Shown here piece after piece: positions 8,981 to 23,013 of a stretch of 30,374 bases of DNA (the first letter of the stretch is position 1; each line of letters starts with the position of its first letter). A program made the translations under genes and the position numbers. Below the pieces are notes generated by a model. The model was not told the DNA's origin, did not search any database, and saw only the letters and a program-made list of their open reading frames with translations. The DNA is taken from positions 73,963 through 104,336 of the IMG/VR virus record IMGVR_UViG_3300009788_001732. One strand, written 5' to 3'. The DNA is from a virus (lineage: Duplodnaviria > Heunggongvirae > Uroviricota > Caudoviricetes).

Positions 8981-9168
8981 TGCCGAGATTCACTATCAAC
9001 GTTGAACGTAAAATGGTTGAAACTGTTGAGATTATCGTCGTTGTTGATACTGAAGATCAAGCTTATGATAAAGCACGCAGTATAGCTGATCGCGGCAAGG
9101 GTGTGGTAACTCATCGTGAATGTGACCCTGACGCGACATACATCTTCAGCGTCAAGGAAATTAAATGA
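8980..9168 (+). CDS. Small hypothetical protein
   Basis: Overlapping start/stop at both ends. Confidence 0.7.
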   Translation: MPRFTINVERKMVETVEIIVVVDTEDQAYDKARSIADRGKGVVTHRECDPDATYIFSVKEIK

Positions 9169-9437: not shown

Positions 9438-9666
9438 ACCCCGGCTCCCGCAAGTAAAACGAGCATTATTTGATGGAATGTCGGCCGACTTTGGTAAAAG
9501 TGACAAGGTTGAGTCTTGGATTGCAAAACTCGCAAATGAGAATCCTCAAATTATAATCGCTATAGATGCGCTCGGCACGTCAGGCGGCATCCTTGCCGCT
9601 GCATTGGTTTATGCTTTGTTGGATTCGCAAGCCGAGGCCGACGAAATGTATGAAAATTTCAAATGA
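9430..9666 (+). CDS. Hypothetical protein
   Basis: AGGA RBS before ATG 9430; overlaps neighbours. Confidence 0.7.
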   Translation: MSEPRLPQVKRALFDGMSADFGKSDKVESWIAKLANENPQIIIAIDALGTSGGILAAALVYALLDSQAEADEMYENFK

Positions 9667-10007
9667 AACTCATTGAGTTAGCGCAGTCGGACAAGGGTAG
9701 CACTCAGTTGAAGGTCGTGATTGACCAAATCAACTTTGTTTTCAAGCAACCACTGCAACCCACACTCATGGTAAGCATAGCCGGCGCTATGCTGCCATGT
9801 GTCGGCGACTACAACCAAGTGTTAGAAAGCTTGGGCCTAGAAGGCTTCGTTCTTTTGGATACGCCCAACGGCTCGAAGGCTGCGGTCAACCCAAAGCACA
9901 TTCTATTCTTTATGACACCGGAACTGGGGCTGTTCAATTTGATGTTTACCGGCAAAACCGGCTTAGTTGTTAAAGCCACTACGGCCGAGATGGAACAAAT
10001 GTTTTGA
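9663..10007 (+). CDS. Hypothetical protein built of two similar beta-rich halves
   Basis: LIEL...KVVIDQINFV versus FVLL...KAAVNPKHILFF; ATGA overlap. Confidence 0.7.
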   Translation: MKLIELAQSDKGSTQLKVVIDQINFVFKQPLQPTLMVSIAGAMLPCVGDYNQVLESLGLEGFVLLDTPNGSKAAVNPKHILFFMTPELGLFNLMFTGKTGLVVKATTAEMEQMF

Positions 10008-10032
10008 CACTCTAGCTTTCGTGTGATAGACT
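10004..10032 (+). promoter_or_regulatory. Sigma70-type promoter (unit 1)
   Basis: TTGACA-17-TAGACT. Confidence 0.75.
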
Positions 10033-10035
10033 AGA

Positions 10036-10198
10036 ATGTATTAGGTTCCGTAGGGAATCACTTTTTGCCGACCCGCCTGTCTGGCGGACGGTTTCGACAT
10101 TTTAGTTCTCATACGGTAGACTGGAGTGTGCATTATGTATTCGATTCCGTAATGGAATCACTTTTTGCCGTCCCGCCCTTCCTTCGGCGGGGCGGTTT
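10036..10198 (+). repeat. Two copies, 100 bp apart, of a double-hairpin element; candidate sRNA or leader
   Basis: Shared ATGTATT..RTTCCGTA.GGAATCACTTTTTGCCG.CCCGCC...GGCGG..CGGTTT; identical 17-mer at 10054-10070 and 10154-10170. Confidence 0.8.
10094..10122 (+). promoter_or_regulatory. Sigma70-type promoter (unit 2)
   Basis: TCGACA-17-TAGACT. Confidence 0.55.
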
Positions 10199-10214
10199 AT
10201 CCTCTGGAGAAACT

Positions 10215-10451
10215 ATGTACTTCAAAGTTGACAATGGTATACTGGCACCCGCAAAGCGTGGCATCGAGATCGACACCAGCAAGTACAAAGTGCAGATCAA
10301 CAGCAAACATTTTCAGTTGTCAGCCGACGACCAGCATCATAACTTTCTGATCGATTTTGGGATAAGCCAATCCAAGCGGAACACAGTTATCTGTGACAAT
10401 GCTGGTGAAATGCTTCACATTTTAGCTCTCATTAAAATGGCATTTGGCTAA
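10215..10451 (+). CDS. Hypothetical protein
   Basis: GGAG RBS; TAATG coupling to def. Confidence 0.7.
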   Translation: MYFKVDNGILAPAKRGIEIDTSKYKVQINSKHFQLSADDQHHNFLIDFGISQSKRNTVICDNAGEMLHILALIKMAFG

Positions 10452-11014
10452 TGGAAATCCTGAACTATCCGCACCCGATCCTACGGTTCAAGACACGGGA
10501 AGTAAAGAAAGTTGATGAGAACTTTCGTGAGCTTGCTGATGAGATGCTTGCAACTATGCGTGCTGAAAAGGGCAGCGGCTTATCAGCAAACCAAGTCGGA
10601 TTCCCATTTCGCATGCTTGTCGTTGATTACCAGGGCTCGGAATTCTGTTTAGTTAACCCCGTCGTCAAACCATTTGGTAAACCAAAAGCTAAAAAAGAAG
10701 GCTGCTTATCATTTCCGGACGTGTTGATTGAGATCAAACGTTGTACAAAATGTCACTTGATGGCGCATGACTTATATGGAAACTATATTGATCAAAATAT
10801 CAGTGGAGATTTGGCGAGGATTGTCATGCACGAGACGGACCATCTCGATGGCATGTTATTTATTGACAGACTGACAGAGTTGCAGCTAAAGTTTATTTAC
10901 CCACAATTAGCAGTAATGGACCGAGTTTGGAATTCTTCAGAACATAGCTTTCCTGCCGGCGCTTTCAATGAACTTTTGTATGATTACTGCGATGTAGAGC
11001 GCCCCACAACATAA
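10451..11014 (+). CDS. def: Peptide deformylase
   Basis: All three PDF motifs: GSGLSANQVG, EGCLS, HETDHLDG. Confidence 0.95.
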   Translation: MEILNYPHPILRFKTREVKKVDENFRELADEMLATMRAEKGSGLSANQVGFPFRMLVVDYQGSEFCLVNPVVKPFGKPKAKKEGCLSFPDVLIEIKRCTKCHLMAHDLYGNYIDQNISGDLARIVMHETDHLDGMLFIDRLTELQLKFIYPQLAVMDRVWNSSEHSFPAGAFNELLYDYCDVERPTT

Positions 11015-11530: not shown

Positions 11531-11824
11531 ATGCCACAAGGTATCAAGAATCAAGACACCCGCGTCGCGGAGTTAGAGGCGTGGATCAATGACCTGCACT
11601 CTGGTATGTTCATTAACTGTGTCTACTGCGGTCATCGGCACGGCCGTAGTCGTGAAGAAATACCAGCCGATACCTTGCGACGCCATATATCAATGTGCCC
11701 GAAACACCCAATGTCAAAGTTAATTGACGAAGTGCAAGATGCTATTATAATGATGGACAGTCCGAGTCAGCGTGGTTTGGCGCGGAAGAAACTTCTTGAA
11801 GCAGTTTTAGAAGCGAGGGCATAA
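11531..11824 (+). CDS. Phage C2HC-type Zn-binding protein
   Basis: INCVYCGH...LRRHISMCPKHP. Confidence 0.75.
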   Translation: MPQGIKNQDTRVAELEAWINDLHSGMFINCVYCGHRHGRSREEIPADTLRRHISMCPKHPMSKLIDEVQDAIIMMDSPSQRGLARKKLLEAVLEARA

Positions 11825-12223
11825 ATGCCTGTTGACTGGAATTGCGAAACAACATCACACATTCCACATTGTGACGTCCCTAAAAACCCTACAAGAAAGT
11901 TCCCAGGTATAGGTGAGCCTAGGCGAATTCGTGTGTCTATCTTGCGGTATGAGATTGGTATTCATTATTACGTTTCCGTAGAGGCCGAGAATAATCCGTT
12001 CTGGAATGACTCAGAACAATCGTGGGTCGTTACGAGTGATGACCTAGATGTCCGCGAAGATCACGAGTCAAAAAGGTTCGACAGCTTTAATCGAGCAGTA
12101 AAATGGCTGCACCTTTACTGTGTTAAACACTTCTCGGATCAGAAAATGTACAGAGTTGTTGATAAGTGGGAAGAAGACTTTGATTGGCTTGATCCAGAAA
12201 CGTATCCAGAAGAACTATGGTAA
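11825..12223 (+). CDS. Hypothetical protein
   Basis: Abuts the upstream stop. Confidence 0.7.
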   Translation: MPVDWNCETTSHIPHCDVPKNPTRKFPGIGEPRRIRVSILRYEIGIHYYVSVEAENNPFWNDSEQSWVVTSDDLDVREDHESKRFDSFNRAVKWLHLYCVKHFSDQKMYRVVDKWEEDFDWLDPETYPEELW

Positions 12224-12248
12224 TCCGCAACTGACTTAGGAGATCAAA

Positions 12249-12809
12249 ATGAACGCTACTATTAAACGTTTGATGGAACGCTTCAAACACAACATGCCAT
12301 TAACTTTGGCACAATTTCGTCGATATAGTAAGGACAATCAACGCCGTATCGTCGCGTGTAATGCTTTACGAATGTTGCTTGCAAATAAAATTCAACCCGA
12401 GCATGTCTATGTTGACGTGCCTTTTACTAAAGCAGCAGAGAACACTCAAGCAGCACAATATATCAAGCGAAGGAGCAAAGCTGATTGTGTTGTATGTGCA
12501 TTAGGTGCACTGTTTACCGGGCACGTAATGGCTCTCGACAACCGCACAGTGAAAGCCTTTTCCAATTCAGATAGGCATGACATCATCGGCGCACTATCCG
12601 GCGGGTTTGATGAAGACACACTTATGCTAATCGAGATTTACTATGAGAACTGGGACGATAATAGTTCGTCTCATGACTGGGATGCCGAAACACTTGCTCA
12701 CGCTAAACGTTTTGGCGATGCTGTTATAAACGACTATGTTTCGATGGAAATAATTCTGGAAAACATTATCGAGCACGGCGACTTTTACCCCTATGAAATG
12801 TCCCTTTAG
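12249..12809 (+). CDS. Hypothetical protein
   Basis: AGGAG RBS; CVVCALGALF motif. Confidence 0.75.
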   Translation: MNATIKRLMERFKHNMPLTLAQFRRYSKDNQRRIVACNALRMLLANKIQPEHVYVDVPFTKAAENTQAAQYIKRRSKADCVVCALGALFTGHVMALDNRTVKAFSNSDRHDIIGALSGGFDEDTLMLIEIYYENWDDNSSSHDWDAETLAHAKRFGDAVINDYVSMEIILENIIEHGDFYPYEMSL

Positions 12810-14320: not shown

Positions 14321-14509
14321 ATGAAATGGCTTCGAGTCTTATTTTCCTGGCTTCCGTACCGCACTTGCGGATGGTGTGGTCGATGGTATCGATATGTGGG
14401 AGAAGGCATGAACACTAAGGAGGTTTGTTCATACATCTGCTACAAGCGGGCTGGACGAGCCCTCTTGAAGCAGAGTCTCACTTCCGCTTCTGAGTGTAAT
14501 TCAAGATGA
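14321..14509 (+). CDS. Small Zn-finger protein
   Basis: CGWCG...CSYIC; first gene after promoter A. Confidence 0.65.
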   Translation: MKWLRVLFSWLPYRTCGWCGRWYRYVGEGMNTKEVCSYICYKRAGRALLKQSLTSASECNSR

Positions 14510-14730
14510 GCAGCTATTTCTACAATCTGTTTTATCTGGCCGCTGGGCTAGCATTCGGATACTGGCTAGGAGTTCAGACGGGGTTGTTTCAACGAGCCTT
14601 CGCCTTAGGCCGCAAGCATTCCCGAAAGCGCCACCGAATTCAGCGTGGACAGCTCAGGCAGGCCCGGCTGATACTCAATAGGCGCATCGGCTTGACCGAC
14701 GAAGAAACCAGACGATACACAGGTTTATAG
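14506..14730 (+). CDS. Single-TM protein with Arg-rich tail
   Basis: ATGA overlap; hydrophobic N-terminus. Confidence 0.7.
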   Translation: MSSYFYNLFYLAAGLAFGYWLGVQTGLFQRAFALGRKHSRKRHRIQRGQLRQARLILNRRIGLTDEETRRYTGL

Positions 14731-21109: not shown

Positions 21110-21149
21110 AATAAAGAAAGCCGTGGCTAGCTGGAACTAGCCACGGCTT
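21110..21149 (-). terminator. Intrinsic terminator
   Basis: 13-bp perfect stem AAGCCGTGGCTAG/CTAGCCACGGCTT, 6-nt loop, followed by TCTTTATTT on the minus strand. Confidence 0.85.
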
Positions 21150-21155
21150 CAAAGT

Positions 21156-21203
21156 GGTTGATTCGGAGAGTACGCCGGCGGTTGATTTGGAGAGTACACC
21201 GGC
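21156..21203. repeat. Two tandem 24-nt repeats
   Basis: GGTTGATTCGGAGAGTACGCCGGC / GGTTGATTTGGAGAGTACACCGGC (22 of 24 identical). Confidence 0.9.
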
Positions 21204-21307
21204 GTGGTGTCACTGTTAGAAAGTGCTAAGATCGGTTCTCCGAATCAAACCCAAATAACGCAAGGACGGAAAGTCCGCCTATTGGCCCTCAGCGTATACC
21301 CAATCAC

Positions 21308-21336
21308 ATTATAGAAGATTGTCGAGCAGTTGTCAA
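21308..21336 (-). promoter_or_regulatory. Perfect sigma70 consensus promoter
   Basis: TTGACA-17-TATAAT on the minus strand. Confidence 0.9.
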
Positions 21337-22929: not shown

Positions 22930-22932
22930 AAA

Positions 22933-23007
22933 CTCGCCCGGTAGGACTCGAACCTACAACCTGCGGATTAGTAATTACCGCTGCTCTGCCAATTGAGCTA
23001 CGGGCGT
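22933..23007 (-). tRNA. Atypical tRNA-like element, anticodon ACT (nominally Ser), short variable loop, no CCA
   Basis: D arm GCTC-AATTGGCA-GAGC; T arm GTAGG-TTCGAGT-CCTAC; 6-bp acceptor stem with A1:A72 mismatch; loop TT-ACT-AA; 2-nt bulge in the anticodon stem. Confidence 0.8.
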
Positions 23008-23013
23008 GCTACT

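Follow-up and report, generated by a model that had tools for sequence, protein, structure and literature searches.

In lambdoid phages, a nut site is made up of boxA and of the boxB hairpin, which is bound by N (GUAA is a GNRA sequence), and in heteroimmune phages the copies of the site are alike within one phage while the orthologous site differs with compensation. At the AlpA-controlled alpB promoter of P. aeruginosa, the intrinsic terminator tB lies immediately in front of the first ORF and begins 54 nt downstream of the transcription start (PMC7969949). The locus described here lies in a window of 30,374 nucleotides (the whole stretch analysed, which forms the final 30 kb of an IMG/VR virus record of 104,336 bp with a rating of complete), and carries at 10004-10200 two tandem units about 100 bp apart, each with a promoter, a 7-nt block, a first hairpin (hairpin 1), a linker, a second hairpin (hairpin 2) and TTT. 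To judge from the two genomes compared, the duplicated unit is a real, constrained and previously undescribed small RNA element of a known kind, whose most likely role is to produce short RNAs and to restrict read-through into the operon that follows.

Structure and genomic setting of the tandem units

The two units occupy a 208-bp gap between a 114-aa ORF (ORF114) upstream and a 78-aa ORF (ORF78) downstream, and their neighbours are all on the same strand (Table 1). Tandem promoter and double-hairpin units had been described at 10004-10198 in an earlier note made from the window, and all of their elements were found again in the sequence; the position given for them, upstream of a hypothetical gene and def, was also correct (ORF78, 10215-10451; def, 10451-11014). 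The locus is tightly packed: the TGA stop of ORF114 overlaps the -35 box of promoter 1 (P1), the T-run of hairpin 2 of unit 1 adjoins the -35 box of promoter 2 (P2), and the end of unit 2 is followed after 9 nt by the ribosome site of ORF78, the gene that comes directly after hairpin 2 of unit 2. The promoter and terminator assignments in Table 1 follow general bacterial rules, which are assumed to apply in the host.

Table 1. Features of the two units and of the adjacent genes, with positions in the window (L003 is the related metagenome contig treated below).
Feature	Position	Strand	Details
ORF114 (114 aa), no assigned function	9663..10007	+	77% identical orthologue in L003
Promoter 1, TTGACA-17-TAGACT, TG before -10	10004..10032	+	promoter scan, 10/12 matches
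7-nt 5' block, unit 1	10036..10042	+	same sequence as unit 2 copy
Hairpin 1, unit 1	10044..10059	+	6 bp including one G:U, loop GUAG, -6.3 kcal/mol
U-rich linker, unit 1	10060..10066	+	identical to unit 2 linker
Hairpin 2, unit 1	10067..10092 (with TTT to 10095)	+	interrupted 9-bp GC stem, -14.2 kcal/mol
Promoter 2, TCGACA-17-TAGACT	10094..10122	+	promoter scan, 9/12 matches
7-nt 5' block, unit 2	10135..10141	+	same sequence as unit 1 copy
Hairpin 1, unit 2	10143..10159	+	6 bp, loop GUAAU, -5.9 kcal/mol
U-rich linker, unit 2	10160..10166	+	identical to unit 1 linker
Hairpin 2, unit 2	10167..10197 (with TTT to 10199)	+	11 bp, 9 G:C, -23.1 kcal/mol
Ribosome site GGAG (10206-10209) and ORF78 (78 aa, ATG 10215)	10206..10451	+
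def, peptide deformylase	10451..11014	+	Pfam Pep_deformylase, E 6e-42

From the position of its -10 box, the RNA of unit 1 would start at about 10038-10040, within the 7-nt block, and that of unit 2 is predicted to start at about 10130. The -10 box and the terminator stem are 34 nt apart in unit 1 and 44 nt apart in unit 2. Against shuffled sequences, unit 1 had a fold z-score of -2.7 and unit 2 had scores of -5.0 to -5.6, and hairpin 2 of unit 1 would be a weak terminator. In an alignment, the transcribed parts of the units were 86% identical, the identical runs being the 7-nt block, hairpin 1, the linker and the start of hairpin 2. A repeat finder recovered two direct-repeat families with a spacing of 99-100 bp; the unit pair was not reported by Tandem Repeats Finder because there are just two copies, with indels between them.

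The stop codon of ORF78 overlaps the start of def (TAATG), and this overlap is retained in L003, which suggests that the two genes are translationally coupled. ORF78 gave no Pfam or PHROG match and no match to a toxin family. Its structure model showed seven strands and a C-terminal helix (pLDDT 55) and provided only a weak PH-like lead; at this pLDDT and with no significant fold match, the idea that ORF78 is a recognisable RNA-binding or toxin protein was rejected. In the public gene call, ORF78 is 99 aa long (10152-10451) and its ATG falls within hairpin 1; since L003 carries an in-frame stop within this extension, the conserved version of ORF78 is the one of 78 aa that begins at 10215. Logan and ENA contigs also encode ORF78 or its 72%-identical homologue.

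Within the genome, the units stand alone. Their 17-nt core occurs twice in the window (0.12 occurrences expected; 0 of 100 shuffles reached two) and no further copy was found across the 104-kb genome, and a dispersed repeat family was rejected because there is a single locus. One look-alike hairpin is located at genome position 49178, inside a gene of 1176 aa and on the opposite strand. About six strong GC-rich hairpins followed by T-runs were obtained when the whole 104-kb genome was scanned, hairpin 2 of unit 2 being among them. Only three units leading from promoter to terminator within 160 nt or less were present in the 104 kb, namely the two described here and a candidate ncRNA of 190 nt (window 21120-21336, minus strand), in which a consensus promoter (TTGACA-17-TATAAT) is followed 160 nt on by a 12-bp GC hairpin and a T-run; no special complementarity between this candidate and the two units was detected.

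A single-unit relative and the constraint on hairpins and blocks

Relatives were sought by exact and degenerate DNA patterns (the core; linker plus terminator; end of ORF114 plus -35 box) in viral and metagenome contigs. These scans gave only one chance match, inside a coding region, and the 24-nt core of the unit had no exact match in 241 million metagenome records. Among GenBank phages, no relative was found by blastn or tblastn. Protein-anchored scans, for which ORF78, ORF114, def and alignments were used against viral, genome and metagenome contigs, led to a single relative, the metagenome contig L003, via the ORF78 alignment. L003 and the window are collinear, with nucleotide identities of 82-85%, and at four-fold degenerate sites 76% of the nucleotides agree. 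Two stretches of the window are missing from L003 and, judging from this alignment, are insertion/deletion cassettes of the accessory region: 8982-9165, and 11824-12730 with a 132-aa ORF and the greater part of a 186-aa ORF.

L003 has a single unit at the same position, followed by the same ribosome site. The earlier note had looked to structure-conserving homologues, and L003 is one of them, with the promoter, both hairpins and their order retained. Its promoter is near consensus (TTGACA-17-TG-extended TATACT), and all three copies have retained the promoter hexamers with a spacing of 17 nt. Its hairpin 1 has 5 bp and the loop UGUAA and is followed by a U-rich linker, and its hairpin 2 (10-bp GC stem, then six T) is by its sequence a canonical, textbook terminator. 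The stretch from the terminator to the ribosome site is nearly invariant between the window phage and L003. The promoter spacer matches L003 at 12/17 and 11/17 positions, which is close to the 76% of the four-fold degenerate sites and thus gives no sign of additional constraint.

The promoter of L003 aligns equally well to P1 and P2, and its leader and terminator align to unit 2. The extra 100 bp in the window are therefore ascribed to a tandem duplication of the whole promoter-to-terminator module, with its junction in the T-runs found ahead of the -35 box and behind the terminator. P1 and P2 agree at 26/37 positions and each agrees with L003 at 29/37; as the two are slightly less alike than either is to L003, the duplication does not appear to be recent. 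It is also possible that one copy was lost in L003.

Hairpin 1 is kept in L003 through a double compensatory change, U:A to G:C (three copies in two genomes), and the next pair forms a series of A:U, G:U and G:C over the three copies, its G:U in unit 1 being A:U in unit 2. This bears out, and extends to a second genome, the statement of the earlier note that the loops vary while pairing is kept (G:U versus A:U). All three loops contain GUA (GUAG, GUAAU, UGUAA) and two of the three contain GUAA. The sole phage tRNA, a tRNA-Val with the anticodon UAC (window 22932-23008, minus strand), reads GUA, which is shared by the three loops and the 5' block, and this match to the anticodon is probably a coincidence.

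A hairpin of this kind could also be a DNA palindrome, namely an operator for a dimeric repressor just past each promoter, and an inverted repeat is indeed found at about +5 to +30 of each promoter, its copies being alike within the genome and differing between genomes like the operators of heteroimmune phages. However, copy 1 is imperfect as DNA and pairs as RNA (through G:U), the half-site spacing differs by 1 bp (1 nt of loop length), and the distance to the -10 box differs by 9 bp between the copies. Because of these three features, hairpin 1 fits an RNA hairpin better than a DNA operator as far as its sequence can tell, and we consider a repressor operator very improbable.

Between unit 1 and unit 2, the hexamers, stems, 5' block and linker are identical at 58 of 62 positions, whereas the spacer, the segment after the -10 box and the terminator loop are identical at only 12 of 25 (Fisher p = 6e-6), and this difference makes both window copies look constrained and functional. 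In comparison with L003, however, only 27 of the 46 columns of the leader core are identical, which is within the lowest 1% of 35-nt windows over the 9.3-kb alignment. A core that is invariant within the genome but changes fast between genomes points to a sequence-specific partner, not the same one in both phages, although gene conversion between the paralogues would yield the same picture. A more specific proposal would be that hairpin 1, the 5' block and the linker form a lineage-specific site that co-evolves with a factor binding RNA, either an N-like antiterminator or a factor of the host titrated by the short RNAs, which we put forward as a rather unlikely case. If true, it would explain why this site does not vary between the paralogues and yet is highly diverged between phages that are otherwise 83% identical, and it would amount to a nut-like system in a phage lineage and a host group in which none is known.

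Proposed read-through into the ORF78-def operon and alternative roles of the units

In the reading that we prefer, to which we would give about an even chance, the units are short transcription units and at the same time a termination gate for the ORF78-def operon, with hairpin 1 as a probable factor-binding site. Each unit would be self-contained and transcribed by the host RNA polymerase from a sigma-70-type promoter, and the resulting short RNA (about 56 nt for unit 1, about 70 nt for unit 2) would consist of a small hairpin at the 5' end, a U-rich single-stranded segment and a GC-rich terminator hairpin; we infer both the transcript ends and the efficiency of termination, and the latter may be weak in the window units because their U-tracts have only 3 U. 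A promoter scan detected no promoter in the 18 nt from the terminator to the start codon of ORF78, so that ORF78, def and the later genes would need read-through of hairpin 2 by transcription from upstream, from P1 or from P2. The short RNA would be the default product and the operon would be expressed by read-through. The window phage would possess two such gates in series, derived from the tandem duplication of one module between two T-runs.

The earlier note had named paired sRNAs or attenuators, and this is still the right pair of options, except that an attenuator or riboswitch made of RNA only found no antiterminator fold to rest on. When each leader was folded up to the terminator loop, hairpin 1 formed alone and no antiterminator fold appeared in any copy, and among the three leaders no stable pairing of the 5' arm of the terminator with upstream sequence was shared; the riboswitch or classical attenuator was rejected on these grounds, and an RNA-only switch is unlikely because there is no alternative fold in any copy. 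The lack of a switch fold can be read from the folded leaders, just as the elements, their order and their conservation can be read from the alignment of the two genomes. That the units match no recognised riboswitch, as the note had said, agrees with an Rfam 15 search, in which the region of the units gave no match at the gathering score; permissive Rfam scans gave only chance-level matches driven by the terminator (best 19.2 bits versus a cut-off of 37 in the window and 23.5 versus 102 in L003). The tiny ORFs that the note had seen at the start of each unit (MY*, MYSIP*) are present in the window and are not conserved, the block of L003 being without an ATG, and a leader peptide (ribosome-mediated attenuation) was rejected since neither ORF has a counterpart in L003.

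As no competing RNA fold undoes the terminator, read-through would be either a constitutive leak or set by a factor in trans. We hold it likelier that a trans factor recognising hairpin 1 and its flanks sets the read-through; this candidate factor, the existence of which we infer from the compensatory changes and the invariant flanks, might act on read-through or might use the short RNA. In the complete 104-kb record, the families Q, Antiterm and AlpA (PF06530, PF03589, PF05930) gave no match at E <= 1. The search for an N-like protein listed seven frames that contain Arg-rich stretches, none of which could be connected with the site. At 14506-14730 of the window (plus strand), in a region of few long ORFs, there is a 74-aa frame that includes an arginine-rich stretch. 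Outside the window, at genome 15894-16028 (minus strand), a 214-aa frame showed a weak, sub-threshold match to Sigma70_r2 (15.6 bits versus a cut-off of 24) and could on this basis be a phage sigma-like factor.

The result of the Q, Antiterm and AlpA family searches, in which no regulator was found in the genome, would also agree with a passive insulator, in which hairpin 2 ends the upstream operon and damps the strong promoters while hairpin 1 stabilises the 5' end and no specific partner is involved, and attenuating cassettes of promoter and stem-loop are common in phage accessory regions (e.g., PeSL; PMC2839356). A terminator placed after a promoter is, however, poor insulator design, and without a sequence-specific partner the invariance of linker and 5' block next to neighbours of about 50% identity would be unexpected, unless it is due to gene conversion. 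An insulator of this type therefore appears improbable to us.

The same RNAs would be made if the units were two paralogous genes for trans-acting small RNAs (base-pairing or protein-sequestering) with host or phage targets, the read-through into ORF78-def being incidental, and this reading overlaps with the termination gate rather than excluding it. The layout fits small RNAs (strong promoter, 5' hairpin, U-rich single strand before the terminator hairpin, short product), the single-stranded blocks are invariant in both paralogues while spacer and loops have drifted, and tandem paralogues with read-through are known (PrrF1/PrrF2/PrrH; PMC2851614). Against it, the same blocks are diverged in L003 (the 27 of 46 columns and lowest 1% of 35-nt windows given above), searches of the phage genome, of its translation-start regions and of the other candidate ncRNA yielded no complementary site, the window tails have 3 U (six in L003) versus 7 or more for the Hfq-type (PMC5558911), and there is no hfq in the genome. 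We regard trans-acting small RNAs as less likely than the gate but as its strong rival.

With its promoter, RNA, terminator and small ORF in this order, the locus is reminiscent of type III toxin-antitoxin loci, and the minus strand of 10138-10169 has a sub-threshold likeness to the Rfam family CRISPR-DR63 (18.3 bits versus 37), so that an RNA decoy could be imagined, either a mimic of a CRISPR repeat or anti-repeat or an RNA antitoxin for ORF78. The CRISPR-DR63 match, however, has E = 1.4 and is on the strand without promoter or terminator, the 24-nt core is without an exact match in the 241 million metagenome records, ORF78 matches no toxin family, and L003 has a single unit and not a repeat array. 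We give hardly any credence to a decoy.

If the termination gate is correct, expression of an accessory operon with peptide deformylase and several ORFans would, in this poorly known phage lineage, require read-through of a terminator close to its promoter, and the conserved small hairpin would be a concrete handle for finding the factor. The locus is also a clean natural example of a whole promoter-to-terminator module that was duplicated in tandem with both copies kept under constraint. The layout itself is common in phages, and its value here is that of a handle and not of a principle.

Comparison with known systems

Type III toxin-antitoxin loci (ToxIN-like), in which short direct RNA repeats form an array behind one promoter and precede a terminator and a toxin gene of a known family, differ from the locus in that each repeat here has its own promoter and terminator and L003 has only one unit. 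The PeSL cassettes of T4-type phages (PMC2839356) are similar in combining a strong sigma-70-like promoter with a terminating stem-loop between small accessory genes and in having a copy number that varies between close relatives. They are, however, dispersed in about 50 copies per genome, with a stem-loop that mostly overlaps or precedes the promoter (PMC2839356), whereas here there is one locus, both hairpins are in the transcribed leader and a second hairpin is conserved.

The genes prrF1 and prrF2, with PrrH (PMC2851614), resemble the two units as near-identical short RNA genes arranged head to tail and about 95-100 nt apart, each with its own promoter and Rho-independent terminator, the first terminator being read through. 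The predicted RNAs of the present locus are only half as long, a Fur box is absent, L003 has not kept the seed-like segments, and the second terminator leads directly into a protein operon.

The Q and AlpA systems (lambda PR'-tR' with its 6S RNA; alpB) share with the locus a strong sigma-70 promoter, an intrinsic terminator about 35-55 nt past the start and immediately in front of the first ORF of a long operon, and a short RNA as the default product. They differ in that they work without an RNA hairpin, whereas compensatory change has preserved a small one here, and in that late or lysis genes lie behind the gate there but accessory genes (def and ORFans) here; furthermore, the gate is here duplicated in series, and the genome has no gene of the Q, Antiterm or AlpA families.

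With respect to the lambdoid nut site, no boxA-like stretch is common to the three copies and the flanks differ between the window and L003, one of the loops (GUAG) is not GNRA, hairpin 1 is only 7-11 nt before the terminator, and the sites are in tandem and not in divergent operons. Reminiscent of boxB are the hairpin of 5-6 bp with a loop of 4-5 nt, which is here located between an early-type promoter and a terminator, and the pattern of its variation, the copies being alike within the window phage while the orthologue in L003 differs with compensation.
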